Positions 19,579 through 27,650 of a stretch of 64,000 nt of DNA are shown here, piece after piece. The notes beneath the pieces are model-generated. The model had not been told where the DNA came from. It made no database searches and saw nothing but the letters and a program-made list of their open reading frames with translations. Each line of letters opens with the position of its first letter. Positions within the stretch are counted from its first letter, which is position 1. Source of the stretch: Gammaproteobacteria bacterium (GTDB lineage Bacteria; Pseudomonadota; Gammaproteobacteria; CBDDKY01); NCBI GenBank assembly GCA_965230455.1, contig CBDDKY010000003.1, positions 430,948 to 494,947 on the forward strand. The letters are read 5' to 3'. Both the position numbers and the translations under genes were made by a program.

Positions 19579-21070
19579 AACTCGACTATCAAGTTTTTGA
19601 AATTTTCATCACGCATCTAGCATTTGAAGTGCTCCTATATCAGCACCACGCATATGTTTTACGGAACTTTTAAGTTGAAAAAGCTGAGAAATTTTATCCG
19701 TATATTTTTTAAACATAGCCTGTGGGTCTTCACTTGTGACAATTTCCTCTATAAAAGCAGTCAACGACTCCATCATGACTTTCTCTCGTAGCGATCCAAC
19801 CGTAGCTGCTAGACCTTTGTTTTTATGCAAGTCCGTTTGATCCTGATGAAAATGGAGCGCATGGTCACTCAAGAGGCTGATTAACAATCCGTGCTCTGAG
19901 CCATCAACACCTCTTTGCATAGCCAGCTGGTTCCATCCTTCATAGGATTTCCAGTCTTGTATAAAAACCTCCACAAGCCAACGGAGCGAATAGGCTTTTA
20001 TAATGTCAACGTCAAGCCAAGTTGCATCATTGGCAACTAGATAGCGATAATCTTCTTCACCTTCATATTTTAATGCAATAACGCGCAACCTTTTATTATG
20101 TGCCTTTACCTTAAATTTAGCAGCGCGATAAGTTATTTTCTTTTTATTAAAACGCAGTGTGATTTCTTCAGTTTTACCCTGGTAGTTTTCAAAAAACTTT
20201 TGTACCTGAATAAAGCGACCATTAACATTAATCAGTTGAGTTTTTTTAATCTGACTTAATACCTGGGCTTGTCCAGTAGCAGCGACAGCACCATCAAAAA
20301 ATTCTTTGTTGCCATAAAAAGTATCTCCAATTACAGCTTTGATTTTTAAGTCACTAAAATTAGACGTAAAGTCACTAAGTGCCTCTATTGCCAATGATAT
20401 TTTAGTTGGGTAATTTGGATTGCGCCCCGGCATTTTTGGCCGGTATTTTTTTTGTATACCCTTCTTTCTTAGTCGTTTATCTTCTTTACGCCATGCTGAA
20501 ATATCTGGGTCTGGTTCATAAAATCTAAAACCAACAGGAATCGTTAACGTATCACTGACCAATAGTAAAAAAATAATGTTTTGGCCACTAAAAAAACCAG
20601 CATGCTTTTTGTCACGTATTTTATGCACCTTTGCAATTTCTGTTGTGTTTTTAGAGCGCTCACTATCTGTGTCATCAATCACAAGCACGCCTGATTTAAT
20701 GCCATATCGTTCTATTAATTTAATAACGCTGGCTTTTAACAATAACTCCCACGCAATTCTTGCTTTTTTAAACATCCAACACATGGCTGCTGCACTATAT
20801 TTTCCGCAACTAAATCGCTCAAATCGAGCCCAGCATAATGAATTAGTAATGATTAAGCCCAATATGACAAAGGATAACCAGTAACACTGTAGCTTGCTCA
20901 ATTTCTGTTCTGGAGAATGCTGCTTGATAGCATCATTGAGTAATTCTACATAATCTTTTATGAATGGTAATCCTTCGCCTATAATCATCCCGTGTCGCAC
21001 CCTGATATAAATTTGTGCGGAAAATAATACAGAATTCAGCCTACAGCGTCAAAAACTTGATAGTCGAGTT
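19579..21070 (-). mobile_element. IS4-family insertion sequence (about 1.49 kb) with 20-bp terminal inverted repeats AACTCGACTATCAAGTTTTT
   Basis: The inverted repeats sit at 19579-19598 and 21051-21070 and flank a single transposase ORF. Confidence 0.8.
19609..21000 (-). CDS. IS4-family DDE transposase
   Basis: 463 aa. The C-terminal YSLRWLVEVFIQDWK fits the Y(2)R(3)E(6)K signature of IS4 transposases. Confidence 0.75.
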   Translation of the reverse strand: MRHGMIIGEGLPFIKDYVELLNDAIKQHSPEQKLSKLQCYWLSFVILGLIITNSLCWARFERFSCGKYSAAAMCWMFKKARIAWELLLKASVIKLIERYGIKSGVLVIDDTDSERSKNTTEIAKVHKIRDKKHAGFFSGQNIIFLLLVSDTLTIPVGFRFYEPDPDISAWRKEDKRLRKKGIQKKYRPKMPGRNPNYPTKISLAIEALSDFTSNFSDLKIKAVIGDTFYGNKEFFDGAVAATGQAQVLSQIKKTQLINVNGRFIQVQKFFENYQGKTEEITLRFNKKKITYRAAKFKVKAHNKRLRVIALKYEGEEDYRYLVANDATWLDVDIIKAYSLRWLVEVFIQDWKSYEGWNQLAMQRGVDGSEHGLLISLLSDHALHFHQDQTDLHKNKGLAATVGSLREKVMMESLTAFIEEIVTSEDPQAMFKKYTDKISQLFQLKSSVKHMRGADIGALQMLDA

Positions 21071-21277
21071 AAAAAAATCAAACACGAATATGCTAAAAAG
21101 CTACGACAAATATTAACTATCCTCAATGCAGCAACTGTCATTGAGGATATTCAAAGTGTTAAGCCTCTACGCTGCCATGCCCTAACGGGCAATCGTAAAA
21201 AAGAGCATGCCGTGTGGGTTAATAAAAATTGGCGCGTTACATTTATTTTTCAAGATGGTAAATTAAGGAGATAGAGT

Positions 21278-21568
21278 ATGATGATGCACACCCCCCCCCA
21301 TGTTGGAGAAATACTATGGGACATGTATTTAGAGCCTTTAGAGGTATCTATAACCGATGCGGCTAAACATCTGGGTATTACTCGCCAAGCACTATCGCGC
21401 TTAGTGAATCAGCAGTCAGGGATTAGCGCAGAAATGGCTATTCGATTAGCTAAAGCCTTTGAAACCTCTCCTGATTACTGGATGAATATGCAAGCACAGT
21501 ATGATTTATGGAAAGCCCATAAATTTTCCAAAGACATTAACGTTAAGCCTTTTGATAAAGCTGCTTAA
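21278..21568 (+). CDS. higA: HigA-type HTH antitoxin (partner of the disrupted higB-2)
   Basis: 96 aa. The sequence LGITRQALSRLVNQQSGISAEMAIRLAKAF is a paralog of the antitoxin at 16096. Confidence 0.75.
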   Translation: MMMHTPPHVGEILWDMYLEPLEVSITDAAKHLGITRQALSRLVNQQSGISAEMAIRLAKAFETSPDYWMNMQAQYDLWKAHKFSKDINVKPFDKAA

Positions 21569-21764
21569 GCATTGTCGCGTGGGGATTTAATCTAAAATCA
21601 GAAGGACTGCGACAGGATGTCTGTGGCAGTCATTGCTTATTTCCCTTTTTAGTTTCCTTATCTAAATCAATCTGTTACACCAAAAAGATGCGATTTACTG
21701 CTGATTTTAGGTTAAATCGCTGTCCGCGCGGATTGATTCCGCGCAGGGTAAGCCCGTCTAAAAA

Positions 21765-22935
21765 AAGCATTGCCTTTCAATGGCTTACGTGCCACCTTAC
21801 TCGGATGTGCTTGTGCGTTCATCATTCCTTGTGAAGGCAAACCATCTTGAGTAATAAACTAACGGGTACACCATAACAGAAGCATTGCCTTTCACTGGCT
21901 TACGTGCTCTCTTACTCGTCCTTGCGAGCGGCAGCGCGGCAATCCAGGGTGGTAGGCTGACTTATCCTATTTTTTTAATAAATGACAAATGGGTATGCCT
22001 TCTCTTGAACAAGGCAAGGCGCTATGTGTGCAGAGTCCATAGCTTCGTGGTTTAAACTTTCCTAGGATTTAATTTGGATTGCCGCGCTGTCGCTCGCAAC
22101 GACGACTAAGGTGGTGCGTAACAAGTTGATGTAGAATGATTTTTTTAGGGTGTGCTTGTGCGTTCATCATTCAGCAGACGCACCTTTACCACAAAAAATG
22201 AACGGATGACGCAGGCTGCTCGCAACGACGAATAAGAGGGGTTGTAAGCTACTGAGAGAGTGTGTGAATTTTTTCGGATGTGCTTGGGCGTTCATCATTT
22301 CTTGTGAAAGCAAACCGTACTGAGTAATAAACTAACGGGTACACCATAACAGAAGCATTGCCTTTCAATGACTTACGTGCTCTCTTACTCGTCCTTGCGA
22401 GCGGCAGCGCGGCAATCCAGGGTGGCGGGCTGACGTGTCGCTGTTTTTTTGATGCGTGACGTATGGGTATGCCTTCTCTTGAACAAGGCAAGGCGCTATG
22501 TGTGCAGAGTCCATAGCTTCGTGGTTTAAACTTTCCTAGGATTTAATTTGGATTGCCGCGCTGCCGCTCGCAACGACGACTAAGGTGGTGCGTAACAAGT
22601 TGATGTAGAATGATTTTTTTAGCGTGTGCTTGGACGTTCATCATTCAGCAGACGTACCTTTACCACAAAAAATGAACGGATGACGCAGGCTGCTCGCAAC
22701 GACGAATAAGAGGGGTTGTAAGCTACTGAGAGAGTGTGTGAATTTTTTCGGATGTGCTTGGGCGTTCATCATTTCTTGTGAAAGCAAACCGTACTGAGTA
22801 ATAAACTAACGGGTACACCATAACAGAAGCATTGCCTTTCAATGGCTTACGTGCTCTCTTACTCGTCCTTGCGAGCGGCAGCGCGGCAATCCAGGGTGGT
22901 AGGTTGACTTGTTCTATTTTTTCAGTGAACTAGAA
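21765..22935. repeat. Tandem repeat array, about 474-bp unit, about 2.5 copies, with internal hairpin-forming inverted sub-repeats (CTTGCGAGCGGCAGCGCGGCAATCC / GGATTGCCGCGCTGCCGCTCGCAA)
   Basis: The period was measured from recurrent AGAAGCATTGCCTTTCA at 21878, 22351 and 22825. The sequence is non-coding and the ORFs called inside it are spurious. Confidence 0.8.
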
Positions 22936-22990
22936 ACAGGTATGCCCTATAATGCCATTGAGGTTATTAGTATTGAAGAGGTGAAAAAGC

Positions 22991-23331
22991 GTGATGAAAG
23001 GACATACTAACGTTCAAGTTATTAAGCAGAGCAATAAGCCTGCCTTTGTTGTCTTGCCCTACCAGGACTGGCTGGAAATAACAAAGGAAATGTCAAATGA
23101 AGCTGACTATATCCCTCACGAGGTTGTCGGGATCCAGCTTGAAGATTCTTGTAGTTTAATTGCTGCATGGCGGAAATACCGCAAATTAACTCAATCGGAA
23201 CTTGGAAAAAAATTGGCGTTAGCCAGCCTGCAATGGCACAGATTGAAAGCAAAGACAGCTCTCCAAAACCTCAAACGTTGAGGAAGCTCGCCTCTGCTCT
23301 GAGTGTCAAAATAGAACAACTAATTGACTAG
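22991..23331 (+). pseudogene. Antitoxin-like HTH protein (Phd-like N-terminus + XRE HTH), frameshifted at an A7 run
   Basis: The ORF ends at 23281. The +1 frame continues as GVSQPAMAQIESKDSSPKPQTLRKLASALSVKIEQLID, a canonical HTH. An A8 instead of the A7 at 23206-23212 would restore one frame. Confidence 0.55.
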
Positions 23332-23454
23332 ACGTTAACTACCAACTTACTACTTTTTTATCAAATGCTAACGCACGATAAGTTGCCCTTTTTGCGCGTT
23401 AGGCACACCGTAAACTTACTCGTTATTAACGATAACTTTATTTATCATTAACAC

Positions 23455-24642
23455 ATGACAAAAGACATCAAAGTACCACATCATCAGCCTATATTTATCC
23501 TGACTTGCTTGACCATCTTCGTTAGTGGTGCGAGTGTCGATATGTTTGTGCCGTCATTACCGGCTATTGCAACTTTCTTTCATGTATCCAATAAAATGGC
23601 TGGTCTTATTGTTACTTTTTATCTGCTTTCTTGCGGTATATCTCAACTCTTTGCGGGTAGCTTATGCGATAGCGTGGGACGCTCTAAAGTATTAACGACA
23701 TCAATGTTTGCTTATGCTCTCATAACAGCAATGATACCTTTTTGTCATGAATTTAATGTTTTATTACTACTAAGAGTTCTACAAGGCATATTTGCCGCAG
23801 GTATTGGTGTCGCGGGACGCTCGGTATTGCCTGATTGCTATAGTGGCAAGACGCTAGCTAAGCGTTCCACCTATTATACTTTATCGTGGAGCACAGGCCC
23901 TGTGCTTTCTCCCTTTATCGGCGGTTATCTACAAGTACATTTTGGCTGGCGGGCTAGTTTTTATTGCTTGGCAGGCTATGCATTTATTGTTGCATTGTTA
24001 TTATTAAAATGGTTCTTTGAAACAGTGCCTAACAAGCATACCTTGAGATTTAAAACCTTTCTTGGTAACTATAAAACAGTTCTGCAATCAAGTGTTTTCT
24101 TTTATGCCACACTTTTATGTGGACTCGCTTATGGTTTTATTACCGCGTTTAATGTCTCAGGGCCTTTTTTAATTGAAACAGTGCTACATTACAGCCCCAT
24201 CGTATATGGACACATTGCCCTCATGTTGGGTATCGCTTGGATGCTGGGCAATATGGCTTGCCGCCTCATTATCAGCGGCTCTCAAGCGACACTTTATTTC
24301 AGCCTGAATGTAATGCTTGCAATTGTGCTCGCTTTGATTAGCCTTTTACTCGCGCTATTTTTTAATATGACACTTTGGTCTGTATCCACCCCAGCAATTT
24401 TATTGATGTTTTGTGGTGGTGTTTTATTTCCATTAGGATTCAGTCGTTGTTTAAGTTACTTTCCTCAAATTGCCGGTAGTGCAAGTGCGGCTATGGGTGC
24501 TATGTACTCTGTGTTTGCTGGTTCCATTTCAGCATTGGCAACCTTTACCAAAGCAAGTACTGCTATTAATGTTTCTATTATTTTCTTGATGAGCGCTTTG
24601 TTTATTGCACTGTTTTTCTTTTTGTTAACTAAAGAAAAATAA
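23455..24642 (+). CDS. MFS transporter (Bcr/CflA-like drug-efflux type)
   Basis: 395 aa with 12 predicted transmembrane segments and a GRSKVL-type motif after the second segment. Confidence 0.7.
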   Translation: MTKDIKVPHHQPIFILTCLTIFVSGASVDMFVPSLPAIATFFHVSNKMAGLIVTFYLLSCGISQLFAGSLCDSVGRSKVLTTSMFAYALITAMIPFCHEFNVLLLLRVLQGIFAAGIGVAGRSVLPDCYSGKTLAKRSTYYTLSWSTGPVLSPFIGGYLQVHFGWRASFYCLAGYAFIVALLLLKWFFETVPNKHTLRFKTFLGNYKTVLQSSVFFYATLLCGLAYGFITAFNVSGPFLIETVLHYSPIVYGHIALMLGIAWMLGNMACRLIISGSQATLYFSLNVMLAIVLALISLLLALFFNMTLWSVSTPAILLMFCGGVLFPLGFSRCLSYFPQIAGSASAAMGAMYSVFAGSISALATFTKASTAINVSIIFLMSALFIALFFFLLTKEK

Positions 24643-24966
24643 TACGAGAACACCACTCGTTTTATATAGTGCTCATCCACCTCAAAAACCCTCTTGATTG
24701 GTTTGCGTATAACCACATGCTAACGCATGATAATAGGTTTTTATCTACCGCTAGGAATCATGGCTATGACTGATGTTTGAATGGTTTCAAGCCCCTTTTA
24801 CTGGTCTCAATCGTACTGATATAACGATAAAATCACATAACATTTGTTCTTAATTTAACCCACAGAACTAATGCCCTATAATTACTCAATCAACTGTTTA
24901 TATTAGGCTTTTTAACGGTGCAGCCGACTTTATAAGCACAGAAGCCAAAGATCCAGATTGACAATA

Positions 24967-24983
24967 TTAACCTAATAGGTTAA
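24967..24983. promoter_or_regulatory. MqsA-type operator palindrome TTAACCTAATAGGTTAA (AACCT-N3-AGGTT) immediately upstream of mqsR
   Basis: The perfect palindrome matches the known MqsA recognition motif ACCT(N)AGGT. It lies 10 bp upstream of the mqsR ATG. Confidence 0.6.
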
Positions 24984-24992
24984 TATTAAACT

Positions 24993-25288
24993 ATGGAGAA
25001 AAGCACACCACATACAAAGCTTATAGCTGTTAAAGCCCTGCTTGAGGAAGGCAAGGTGCGTACAACGCGAACGGCTTTGGTGGGTCAGCAGCGTTGGGGA
25101 TGAACGTCGATGACATGCTTGAATGCGTCATGGCTCTGACTATGGAAGACTTTTATAAAAGCATGACGACTTATGCCGATCATACTCAATGGCAAGATGT
25201 TTATAAGCCTCAAACTGCATACGGAGAAATTTATTTAAAATTGATGGTAGACAACGATGTACTAATTGTCTCTTTCAAGGAGTTGTAA
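24993..25288 (+). pseudogene. mqsR: MqsR-family toxin, frameshifted (or sequencing error)
   Basis: MEKSTPHTKLIAVKALLEEGKVRTTRTALVGQQRWG* is followed in the +1 frame by SAALGMNVDDMLECVMALTMEDFYKSMTTYADHTQWQDVYKP...VLIVSFKEL. Together they reconstitute full-length MqsR. One base is missing near 25065-25080. Confidence 0.7.
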
Positions 25289-25289
25289 T

Positions 25290-25736
25290 ATGAAATGTCC
25301 TAACTGTTCTAATTCACAATTAATATATGATACAAGGGATATACCTTATACATACAAAGGTGAATCAACCACTATCCCGAAGGTTACTGGGCATTTTTGT
25401 TCGTCCTGTGATGAAATTATTCTTGATGTCGAAGAGTCGAAGTGTCTTAATCAATTAATGCAGGCCTTTAACCGGGAAGTCAACCAAGCCAGCATTAATC
25501 CGCAATTTATTGCTGATGTCAGAAAAAAATTATCACTTAACCAGAAACAAGCGGCAGAAATGTTTGGCGGCGGTGTTAATGCTTTTTCACGCTATGAAAA
25601 TGGTCAGACCAAACCACCACTAGCACTGGTAATCCTGTTAAAACTTCTCAACCAAAAACCTGAGTTGTTACACGATATTGATTCACTCCTAGTAAAAAAT
25701 GCAAAACACCACAGAAATAAGCATCGTAGGTACTAA
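25290..25736 (+). CDS. mqsA: MqsA antitoxin (zinc-ribbon N-terminus + HTH C-terminus)
   Basis: MKCPNCSNSQLIYDTRDIPYTYKGE...FCSSCDEI... is followed by LSLNQKQAAEMFGGGVNAFSRYENGQTKP, the MqsA architecture. The ORF-track start at 25266 is probably spurious. Confidence 0.8.
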   Translation: MKCPNCSNSQLIYDTRDIPYTYKGESTTIPKVTGHFCSSCDEIILDVEESKCLNQLMQAFNREVNQASINPQFIADVRKKLSLNQKQAAEMFGGGVNAFSRYENGQTKPPLALVILLKLLNQKPELLHDIDSLLVKNAKHHRNKHRRY

Positions 25737-25994
25737 TTTAAAAGATAGCTTTTAACAGCATCGAAAGTCAAATTGAAAAGGTAAAATACAGTAATTCCCG
25801 CTGGGAATTGTTGCGGAAAATATAAGATCCTTCTCCCCAAAGGCCGCATGGTATTCGTTATAATTTGACGCTGCATGACAACCATAATAAACGTATTTTA
25901 GGATTTGATAACGCTCATGCTATTCGTGGGTCACGTGGTAAATATAAAGGACGTACTGTTGAGTATGATCACATACATAAAGATCTTTCGGACA

Positions 25995-26650
25995 AGGGAA
26001 CTGCAACTTGTTACGCACCACCTTAGTCGTCGTTGCGAGCGGCAGCGCGGCAATCCAAATTAAATCCTAGGAAAGTTTTAACCACGAAGCTGTGCATTTT
26101 GAATACATAACGCCCCACCTTGTTCAAGAAAGGACATACCCATTTGTAACTCATTAAAAAAATAGAACAAGTCAGCCTACCACCCTGGATTGCCGCGCTG
26201 CCGCTCGCAAAGACGAGTAAGAGGGGCTGCAAGCTACTGAGAGAGAGTGTATTTTTTCGGGCGTACCCGTTAGTTTATTACTCAATACGGTTTGCTTTCA
26301 CAAGGAATGATGAACGCTCAAGCACACGCTAAAAAAACCATTCTACATCAACTTGTTACGCACCACCTTAGTCGTCGTTGCGAGCGGCAGCGAAGCAATC
26401 CAAATTAAATCCTAGGAAAGTTTTAACCACGAAGCTGTGCATTCTGAATACATAACGCCCTACCTTGTTCAAGAAAGGACATACTTGTTTCTAGTTCACT
26501 GAAAAAATAGAATAAGTCAGTCTACCGCCCTGGATTGCTTCGCTGCCGCTCGCAAAGACGAGTAAGAGGGGCTGCAAGCTACTGAGAGAGAGTGTATTTT
26601 TTCGGGCGTACCCGTTAGTTTATTACTCAATACTGTTTGCTTTCACAAAA
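25995..26650. repeat. Second array (about 2 units, about 345-bp period) of the same repeat family as 21765-22935, in inverted orientation
   Basis: It is the reverse complement of units from the first array, for example GGACATACTTGTTTCTAGTTCACTGAAAAAATAGAA versus TTCTATTTTTTCAGTGAACTAGAAACAGGTATGCC. Confidence 0.75.
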
Positions 26651-26924
26651 AAGATGGAAAAAAATCCTTTATCTTCAGCGAATTAGTCAGCCTCGCGACG
26701 ATTCCAACGGCGGAATTTAGCATAATCAAAAACGATGATTCTTTTATGGGGTCGATGAGACGCTTACAACGCGAGTGCTTCATAAGGAAAAATACAGTCA
26801 ATGTCTATATCTTTGATCAAAACAAGATCAGGCTTGAGTGGTGACGGCATGCATGGCAGGAAGACTTAATGCGTATGAGAAGTGGGGCTGCGATGTGCTC
26901 GCAGCCCTAGGAAGTTCCAATAAA

Positions 26925-27504: not shown

Positions 27505-27650
27505 CTAGGGCCTGTTGACAATTCATCTTTTTGCCCAAATACGGCGTTAAATTGCTCGCTCCGCAGCTCACGCATTACGTATACATTCCGCTGCTCGCAA
27601 GCAATTTGCCTTGTCTTTGGGCAAAAATCTTGAATTGTCAACAGGCCTCA
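27505..27650. repeat. MITE-like element, family A-related copy 2 (same TIRs, different palindromic interior)
   Basis: CTAGGGCCTGTTGACAATTCAT ... GAATTGTCAACAGGCCTCAG, with an interior palindrome TTTTGCCCAAA. Confidence 0.65.

Follow-up and report, generated by a model that had tools for sequence, protein, structure and literature searches.

Two arrays of a hairpin-rich tandem repeat lie in opposite orientation in a 64,000-nucleotide stretch of a gammaproteobacterial contig (CBDDKY010000003.1 of assembly GCA_965230455.1, positions 430,948 to 494,947 of the forward strand), hereafter the window. We find it probable, at roughly 70%, that these arrays are non-coding tandem clusters of CGTC-tagged repetitive extragenic palindromic (REP) dimers, which were amplified together with their flanking DNA and are arranged as an inverted pair. 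The sub-repeat from which they are built appears from its sequence to be a member or a close ally of the CGTC REP super-family. A first-pass annotation of the window had not decided whether the arrays are a recombination substrate or a structured RNA family, and had not recognised the place of the sub-repeat in the described pan-bacterial class of CGTC-tagged REPs. All positions are given in window numbering, and the names E, Y and Y' used below for the modules of the arrays were coined in this analysis.

The two inverted arrays are real and far above chance level. Tandem Repeats Finder detected array 1 at 21801-22922 (period 474, 2.4 copies, 94% matches, score 2032) and array 2 at 26004-26648 (period 345, 1.9 copies, 94% matches, score 1164), and alignment of the modules refined the limits to 21759-22956 on the plus strand for array 1 (474-bp period) and 26004-26650 on the minus strand for array 2 (345-bp period), which is inverted with respect to array 1. 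In a repeat search of the window the arrays aligned as reverse complements of each other with 79-91% identity over 137-344 nt, and within each unit arms of 36-47 nt were found to pair across approximately 128 nt. The GC-rich 25-mer CTTGCGAGCGGCAGCGCGGCAATCC occurred 9 times on both strands when up to 3 mismatches were allowed, always inside the arrays, against an expectation of 0 from 100 shuffles, and the tagged core CGTCNTTGCGAGCRGC occurred 11 times, again exclusively in the arrays, against 0.12 expected for the 64-kb window. The two mutually inverted tandem arrays and the GC-rich inverted sub-repeats of the first-pass annotation are thus confirmed, the latter being 11 copies of one 30-nt element. 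A hairpin at approximately 21700-21758, which had been taken for a fragment of the same family preceding array 1, turned out to be unrelated; it is unique in the window, and its best local alignment scored 15 compared with a shuffle mean of 16.4. Array 1 is in fact led by a solo outer arm of 45 nt (21759-21803).

The element common to both arrays is a REP core of 30 nt, CGTC-sTTGCGAGCG-GCAG-CGCGGCAAT-CCA, present in 11 copies (9 intact and 2 degenerate) that all lie within the arrays. In each of the 11 cores CGTC is followed by sTTGCGAGC, and 9 of them terminate in GCAATCCA. Two cores with their CGTC ends pointing outwards around a spacer of 128-130 nt form, together with outer arms, an element of about 278 bp that we call E; an A-run opens and a T-run closes these lineage-specific arms, and its tips read TAACAGAAGCATT ... 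AATGATTTTTTTA. The 345-bp unit of array 2 consists of E plus a 70-nt linker Y, and the 474-bp unit of array 1 consists of E, Y and an extra 126-nt module Y' carrying a third, degenerate REP. The modules of array 1 follow the order solo outer arm, Y, E1, Y', Y, E2, Y', Y and a truncated E3, with core orientations +,-,-,+,-,-,+, and those of array 2, read on the minus strand, the order truncated Y, E-B, Y and E-A with a truncated outer tail, with core orientations +,-,+,-.

Array 1 opens with the solo outer left arm mentioned above (plus strand; A-run ... GCTTACGTGCC ... CTTACTCG), which stops at the CGTC tag and is joined straight to a copy of Y. E1 (21874-22150, plus strand) is a 277-bp tags-outward dimer made up of outer arm, REP, 128-nt spacer, inverted REP and an outer arm with a terminal T7; E2 (22347-22624, plus strand) is a 278-bp dimer; and E3 (22821-22956, plus strand) is a truncated dimer of which nothing but the left arm and the spacer's 5' part is present, array 1 ending inside the spacer at about 22948-22956. 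In array 2, both on the minus strand, E-A (26004-26258) is a dimer with its outer right tail truncated at 26003/26004, the point at which it takes the place of a TumE-like gene's 3' end, and E-B (26330-26603) is a dimer in which both REPs carry a GCGAAGC variant. The left core of array 1, CGTCCTTGCGAGCGGCAGCGCGGCAATCCA, is found at 21917-21946 with identical copies at 22390-22419 and 22864-22893 (all plus strand), and the right core CGTCGTTGCGAGCGACAGCGCGGCAATCCA at 22075-22104 has its counterpart at 22549-22578 (both minus strand). The degenerate third REP, CGTCGTTGCGAGCAGCCTGCGTCATCCGTT, occurs at 22201-22230 and again at 22675-22704 (both minus strand) as part of Y', and the cores of array 2 lie at 26028-26057 (+), 26186-26215 (-), 26373-26402 (+) and 26531-26560 (-). 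Module alignment placed the Y linker (GATGTGCTTGGGCGTTCATCATT ... GGGTACACCA) at 22277-22346 on the plus strand, with other copies at 21804-21873, 22751-22820, 26259-26329 (minus strand) and, truncated, at 26604-26650 (minus strand). The Y' module at 22151-22276 (plus strand; second copy 22625-22750) combines the start of Y with some 40 unique nucleotides, the degenerate REP and an outer arm of type 2.

A complete dimer is predicted to fold into one large hairpin. For E2 the predicted stem is about 50-60 bp with a free energy of -119.9 kcal/mol, and the RNA-fold z-scores are -6.6 for this strand and -7.6 for the opposite strand. The first-pass description of hairpin-forming repeats under turnover holds. 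The single core behaves differently: the monomer fold has 7 bp, TTGC/GCAA plus GCG/CGC separated by a GA/G internal loop, and its DNA-fold z-scores against shuffles range from -0.6 to +0.7. At minimum energy the left-arm core of array 1 folds with the GCAG tetraloop, and the array 2 type of core takes a different fold with a 5-nt loop. An IHF-core-like site (integration host factor), ATCAACTTGTTA, is located in the outer right arm once per complete unit (22119-22130, 22593-22604 and 26347-26358); such patterns are frequent in this AT-rich window, with 20 sites against 9.2 expected, and we regard the site as a weak lead only.

The description of CGTC REPs by Di Nocera, De Gregorio and Rocco (2013, BMC Genomics 14:522; PMC3733652) gives an unpaired CGTC (or TGTC/CCTC) tag, a stem of 8-9 bp opening with A-T and T-A pairs, a loop of 4-5 nt and an unpaired 3-nt tail with the consensus CCA. 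According to the same paper these REPs mostly form tags-outward (HH) dimers with spacers of 20-100 bp, are intergenic with a preference for the 3' side of unidirectional or convergent open reading frames (ORFs), and occur in several phyla, and no transposase is described as associated with them. In the arrays, CGTC starts 11 of 11 cores, the loop is the 4-nt GCAG (5 nt in the array 2 type of core), and GCAAT-CCA ends 9 of 11 cores, the two degenerate copies lacking it. The tags point outwards in each of the four complete dimers. Array 1 is placed between higA (+) and a helix-turn-helix (HTH) gene (+), a unidirectional arrangement, and array 2 between the mqsA/TumE fragment (+) and a cpxP-like gene (-), a convergent one. 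Clusters in which dimers are repeated in tandem with their flanks have already been described for REPs, and are reported in PMC3733652 to be rare for the CGTC type.

Several observations weigh against this assignment. One concerns the stem: the monomer forms just 4-5 + 3 bp with a bulge and a z-score near 0, compared with the published 8-9 bp, and its stem opens with C, G or T instead of the A of the CGTC family. The cross-phylum consensus of the core, CGTCATTGC...GCAATCC, does start with AT, yet its outer stem (ATTGC/GCAAT) comprises only 5 bp, and it too folds no better than shuffles. The authors of the published survey state that bulged, atypical members were missed by it (PMC3733652). No ATTGCGAG...GCAAT string occurs in the text or supplements of PMC3733652, whose Figure 2 gives the consensuses of its four families (CGTC-1 to CGTC-4). 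The 128-130-nt spacer exceeds the usual 20-100 bp and lies near the top of the 8-152-nt range (median 28.5) of all dimers found with our regular expression, window included. REPs are normally dispersed, and here all 11 copies in the 64-kb window are confined to two arrays. Finally, a block of 105 nt is 97-100% identical between the arrays while its neighbours are 60-76% identical, which could reflect gene conversion or selection on an unrecognised function.

The distribution of the core in other genomes is that of a widely shared repeat. When one genome per species was scanned for exact occurrences of the 24-nt core TTGCGAGCGRCAGCGNNGCAATCC, it was found in at least 114 loci from at least 10 bacterial phyla, with carriers among alpha- and gammaproteobacteria, Brocadia, cyanobacteria, Bacteroidota, Chloroflexota, Desulfobacterota, Firmicutes, spirochaetes, Helicobacter and bacteria of the candidate phyla (CPR). 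Among the matches listed, CGTCA nearly always stands 5' of the core and CC(A) 3' of it. An inverted partner was found for 44 of approximately 128 cores outside the window, in the form GTCATTGCGAG...GCAATCCAG-loop-CTGGATTGC...CTCGCAATGAC; the regular expression used to find dimers was strict, and covariation of the arms across genomes is uninformative beyond AA/TT. Core-bearing units form tandem arrays in 9-10 of the 114 loci listed, with periods of 80-229 nt, and tandem clustering is therefore recurrent in this REP type. Examples with periods of 82-199 nt are L044 1791-2025, L055 7511-8000, L084 1-512, L038 3181-3820 and L067 3336-3590, in hosts belonging to Anaerolineae, Desulfoarculaceae, Christensenellaceae and Methylophaga.

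Clustering of 1,104 nearby ORFs from the 114 loci revealed no enriched neighbouring protein family that would be a candidate transposase, the only clusters being translations of the repeat itself, and 18 loci with the core gave no gathering-level match in Rfam. On megaplasmids carrying the core it is unannotated, and a Legionella lytica plasmid has two copies between convergent genes. No low-GC gammaproteobacterial relative was present among the 114 loci listed. The window-specific REP variant had four metagenome matches, and the one that was looked at (L115, 56% GC) showed an unrelated context. An exact pattern spanning the spacer/REP junction gave no match in metagenome contigs, and a literature search with the sequence strings gave unrelated matches only. 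Known insertion sequence (IS), plasmid or phage sequence was rejected as a source, as a blastn search with array 1 gave no match in 72,556 plasmids or 50,697 phages.

The relationships among the copies bear on how the arrays arose. E elements are 93-95% identical within an array and 80-85% identical between arrays, a pattern that would fit local amplification followed by homogenisation. Three variants of the spacer's 5' part are present, and two of them are each common to one copy of array 1 and one copy of array 2; this mosaic indicates exchange between the arrays or an ancestral polymorphism. Taken together, the identity pattern and the mosaic variants look as would be expected under concerted evolution with gene conversion. 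Between the arrays, the last 33 nt of the spacer, the right core and the right outer arm make up the 105-nt block of 97-100% identity, compared with 60-63% for the left outer arm and 71-76% for the middle of the spacer; since the longest exact inverted match (75 nt) is located in this block, we read it as a probable case of recent gene conversion. The cores of E-B read GCGAAGC where the others read GCGCGGC, and the change of CG to AA on one arm is accompanied by the complementary change of CG to TT on the other. The dimer therefore changes as a unit, as in REPINs (REP doublets forming hairpins).

We propose that a REP dimer with approximately 70 nt of adjacent DNA could have been repeated head-to-tail by unequal recombination or replication slippage to give the 345-bp unit, and that in array 1 a further rearrangement capturing an extra degenerate REP would have produced the 474-bp unit. 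The arrays would then serve as substrates for homologous recombination leading to expansion or contraction, to gene conversion between them and possibly to inversion of the 3-kb segment. A history of single inversion or of mirror duplication was rejected, as the ends of the two arrays do not match in register and no mirror order is seen among the spacer variants. A more active scenario is also conceivable, in which some single-strand DNA enzyme spreads the CGTC REP dimer locally by copying it next to itself, the 105-nt block is the recognised or functional module, and the toxin-antitoxin (TA)/MFS transporter segment is a REP-bounded cassette that can be inverted or mobilised; we give this combination very little credence.

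An alternative origin for the regular arrays is that the ~278-bp E is a MITE, or miniature inverted-repeat transposable element, that is a non-autonomous transposon, which inserted repeatedly beside itself, analogous to the REP-containing QMITE2 of Coxiella. We consider this unlikely. The size of 278 bp, the arms of 47-75 nt resembling terminal inverted repeats, the TA at both tips and the A-run and T-run ends all have a MITE-like appearance, the window contains at least three other MITE-like palindrome families, and with QMITE2 a MITE around a REP is already known from a Legionellales genome. However, no target-site duplications or other flanking direct repeats are recognisable, and the strict period with an identical Y linker is as expected from tandem duplication and not from independent insertions. 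In addition, no copy exists outside the two arrays in the 64 kb, and the plasmid, phage and metagenome searches described above returned neither the array nor the exact spacer pattern.

The orientation of the arrays raises the question of whether the segment between them, 22957-26003, is an invertible or mobilisable cassette that flips, excises or moves and thereby switches expression of its transporter and TA genes. The arrays share 11 exact matches in inverted orientation that are 25 nt or longer, the longest being 75, 54 and 48 nt, in addition to the 79-91% identity over 137-344 nt mentioned above. In Escherichia coli the minimal length for RecA-dependent exchange is approximately 25-30 bp, which these matches exceed, and the mosaic spacer variants indicate past exchange between the arrays. 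Inversion of 22957-26003 is therefore mechanistically possible, and the earlier idea that the inverted arrays could mediate it stands as a possibility. As an explanation of the locus, however, the cassette is improbable: the ORFs scanned include no recombinase or invertase gene in or beside the module, half of the genes in the module have become pseudogenes, and the arrays yielded no outward promoter. Furthermore, array 1 ends in a spacer and array 2 at an outer arm, so that no simple inversion rebuilds one array, and a single static sequence is unable to show inversion.

With respect to function, we infer no dedicated cellular role for the REP clusters, which are presumably selfish or neutral repeat DNA and, at the DNA level, presumably a recombination hotspot. 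If transcription from the outer flanking genes enters the arrays, it would generate a very stable 3' RNA hairpin that could act as a terminator, an insulator or an mRNA stabiliser and decay barrier, roles that are summarised for other REPs in PMC3733652. By analogy with those REPs, such a 3' hairpin role is the most likely effect of the arrays. Because the arrays are inverted, higA, which reads into array 1, and the cpxP-like gene, which reads into array 2, are presented with the same array strand.

It has also to be considered whether the units are tandem small-RNA genes, or type I TA-like genes in the manner of LDR/SIB of E. coli, each giving a structured RNA or a small peptide. The very stable predicted fold, the T-runs after hairpins on both strands, a terminator-like site at 22421-22442, a 21-codon frame in the spacer of four copies and the 97-100% conservation of the 105-nt block could all be cited for this. 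Yet what makes the fold stable is an almost perfect stem of about 50 bp, as REP dimers typically have, and conservation is lowest in the spacer interior, where compensatory changes are lacking. The promoter scan called no sigma-70-like site inside the arrays and no terminator-like site there except the one just mentioned; a candidate promoter in Y (TTGTGA-17-TAATAA) was rejected as too weak and was not called by the scan. Searches of the window against Rfam 15 gave no gathering-level match and nothing but chance-level matches at E up to 10. The 21-codon frame is non-hydrophobic and inconstant in start and length: its start codon changes from ATG to GTG, and in copy 2 read-through extends it to 49 codons. 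Across the units, no ORF keeps its start, length and sequence. We therefore find the small-RNA explanation highly improbable, and the first-pass suggestion of a transcribed structured RNA family is unsupported, there being no Rfam match, no array promoter and, at 71-76% identity, no conserved fold in the spacer interior.

A number of other candidates for the repeat were rejected. Type I TA repeats of the LDR/SIB kind do not fit, as the units contain no conserved small hydrophobic ORF, and a tmRNA-like tag, GCAACGACGAATAA, was ruled out since ARAGORN finds no tmRNA or tRNA. An integron attC array was rejected because the arm ends GCGTAAC/GTTACGC and GTTGATG do not fit GTTRRRY (expected boxes RYYYAAC ... 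GTTRRRY), and no integrase gene (intI) was found among the 28 ORFs or frames scanned. The first-pass verdict that the arrays are not CRISPR holds, as the whole 345/474-bp unit recurs without unique spacers; the neighbours contain no cas domains, and the sole sub-threshold match to CRISPR-DR63 lies outside the arrays at 25780-25814 (E = 8.9).

The bracketed module between array 1 and array 2 (22957-26003, plus strand) contains the genes previously assigned to it, namely an antitoxin-like HTH gene, an MFS transporter and mqsRA, but they are not all intact. The HTH gene (22991-23331) is frameshifted at an A7 run and mqsR (24993-25288) is frameshifted as well, whereas the MFS transporter gene (23455-24642) and mqsA (25290-25736) are intact. 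A TumE-like fragment at 25826-26023, with a weak Pfam match (E = 6.7e-4), has lost its 3' end to array 2. At the other side, the outer end of array 2 meets, via a shared GCTTTCACAA, a half copy of an unrelated palindrome (family C below) at 26639-26725 on the plus strand.

The arrays belong to a decaying mobile island, rich in IS, TA and MITE sequences, that extends over approximately 12-26.7 kb. Such islands are places where REP-like repeats accumulate, which supports the REP reading. The island contains an OTU-like protease gene, an IS110 fragment and an intact HigBA pair, as well as an IS4-like element in the 19588-21271 region (transposase 19609-21000, minus strand) with identical inverted ATCAAGTTTTTG motifs at 19588 and 21061. 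This element truncates the 5' end of a second higB (21011-21271), the partner higA of which (21278-21568) is intact; a run of nine C residues at 21290-21300 in the 5' end of higA (ATGATGATGCACACCCCCCCCCATG) is a possible slippage tract or sequencing-error hotspot. At least three MITE-like families were seen in the window. Family A, of about 140-185 bp with terminal inverted repeats TAGGGNCTGTTGACAATTCAT, is found at 6274-6438, 27506-27647 and 43776-43959, one copy lying between the cpxP-like gene and nhaP. Family B consists of near-perfect palindromes of about 110-130 bp with arms of approximately 52 nt and a loop of 5-6 nt (12266-12377, 33430-33560 and 60784-60914). Family C is represented by a full palindrome at 15557-15755 adjoining the IS110 fragment and HigBA, and by a short fragment at 51161-51185.

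An OTU-like cysteine protease domain, of a eukaryote-like effector type, is found in a 760-aa protein encoded at 12403-14685, and a gene for Hcp (type VI secretion) lies at 40608-41072. Together they suggest a host-associated, Legionellales-like gammaproteobacterium. The lineage is isolated, its best non-self NhaP homologue being 64% identical and the named matches at 58-62% coming from metagenome-assembled genomes of Gammaproteobacteria or Legionellales. The protein database lacks a close relative of this genome, and three proteins of the window had no identical sequence on record.

For annotation, the main use of the locus is that the arrays should be masked as repeat DNA and not taken as a source of genes or small RNAs. 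The locus is also a recombination-prone and assembly-fragile spot beside an intact MFS transporter gene and decayed TA genes. If it holds genome-wide that this Legionellales-like lineage carries the core solely as bulky tandem clusters, the lineage would serve as a useful contrast for studying the spread and the maintenance of such repeats. The 24-nt core is among the most widely shared non-coding strings that we found, and has no Rfam entry; its spread over many phyla without a known transposase is a question for the whole REP family and goes beyond this window.

Among described systems, QMITE2 of Coxiella burnetii (Wachter et al. 2018) and the dRS3/Correia mosaics of Neisseria resemble the arrays in carrying REPs within a hairpin repeat of 150-300 bp, in their 3' UTR or intergenic sites and in belonging to a Legionellales or host-associated genome with many IS elements and pseudogenes. 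QMITE2 differs in that it has a GTAG REP and direct repeats of 7-11 bp and is dispersed, whereas the elements described here are in tandem and lack direct repeats. REPINs (Bertels & Rainey 2011) likewise consist of two inverted REPs and a spacer forming one hairpin unit, and the matched arm changes in one of our dimers recall them; unlike the arrays, REPINs have GTAG-type tags and are mobilised by a single-copy REP-associated tyrosine transposase (RAYT) flanked by REPs. No Y1/RAYT transposase was found among the 28 ORFs or frames scanned, most of the 79 window ORFs of at least 90 aa having been left unscanned. The bacterial interspersed mosaic elements (BIMEs) of E. coli share the opposed REPs with conserved linkers, the mosaic structure and the tandem amplification between genes, and the IHF-core-like ATCAACTTGTTA found once per complete unit recalls RIP/BIME-1. 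The alternating REPs, the conserved spacer and Y linkers and the tandem arrangement are all those of a BIME, but the REP type and the unit size are different, BIMEs having GTAG-type REPs, linkers of tens of nt and units of about 100 bp.

The closest likeness is to the CGTC-tagged REPs as described in PMC3733652, with which the arrays have in common the CGTC tag, the 4-nt loop, the CCA tail and tags-outward dimers able to form one large hairpin, as well as the intergenic position 3' of ORFs, tandem dimer clusters with flanks, occurrence across phyla and the lack of an associated transposase. They differ from these in the bulged stem of 4-5 + 3 bp, the 128-130-nt spacer and the very large units of 345 and 474 bp. 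What we describe is thus a REP cluster of the dimer-plus-flank type, BIME-like in its mosaic build, and represents a known kind and not a new system, with unit size, spacer length and a weak monomer stem as its unusual traits.

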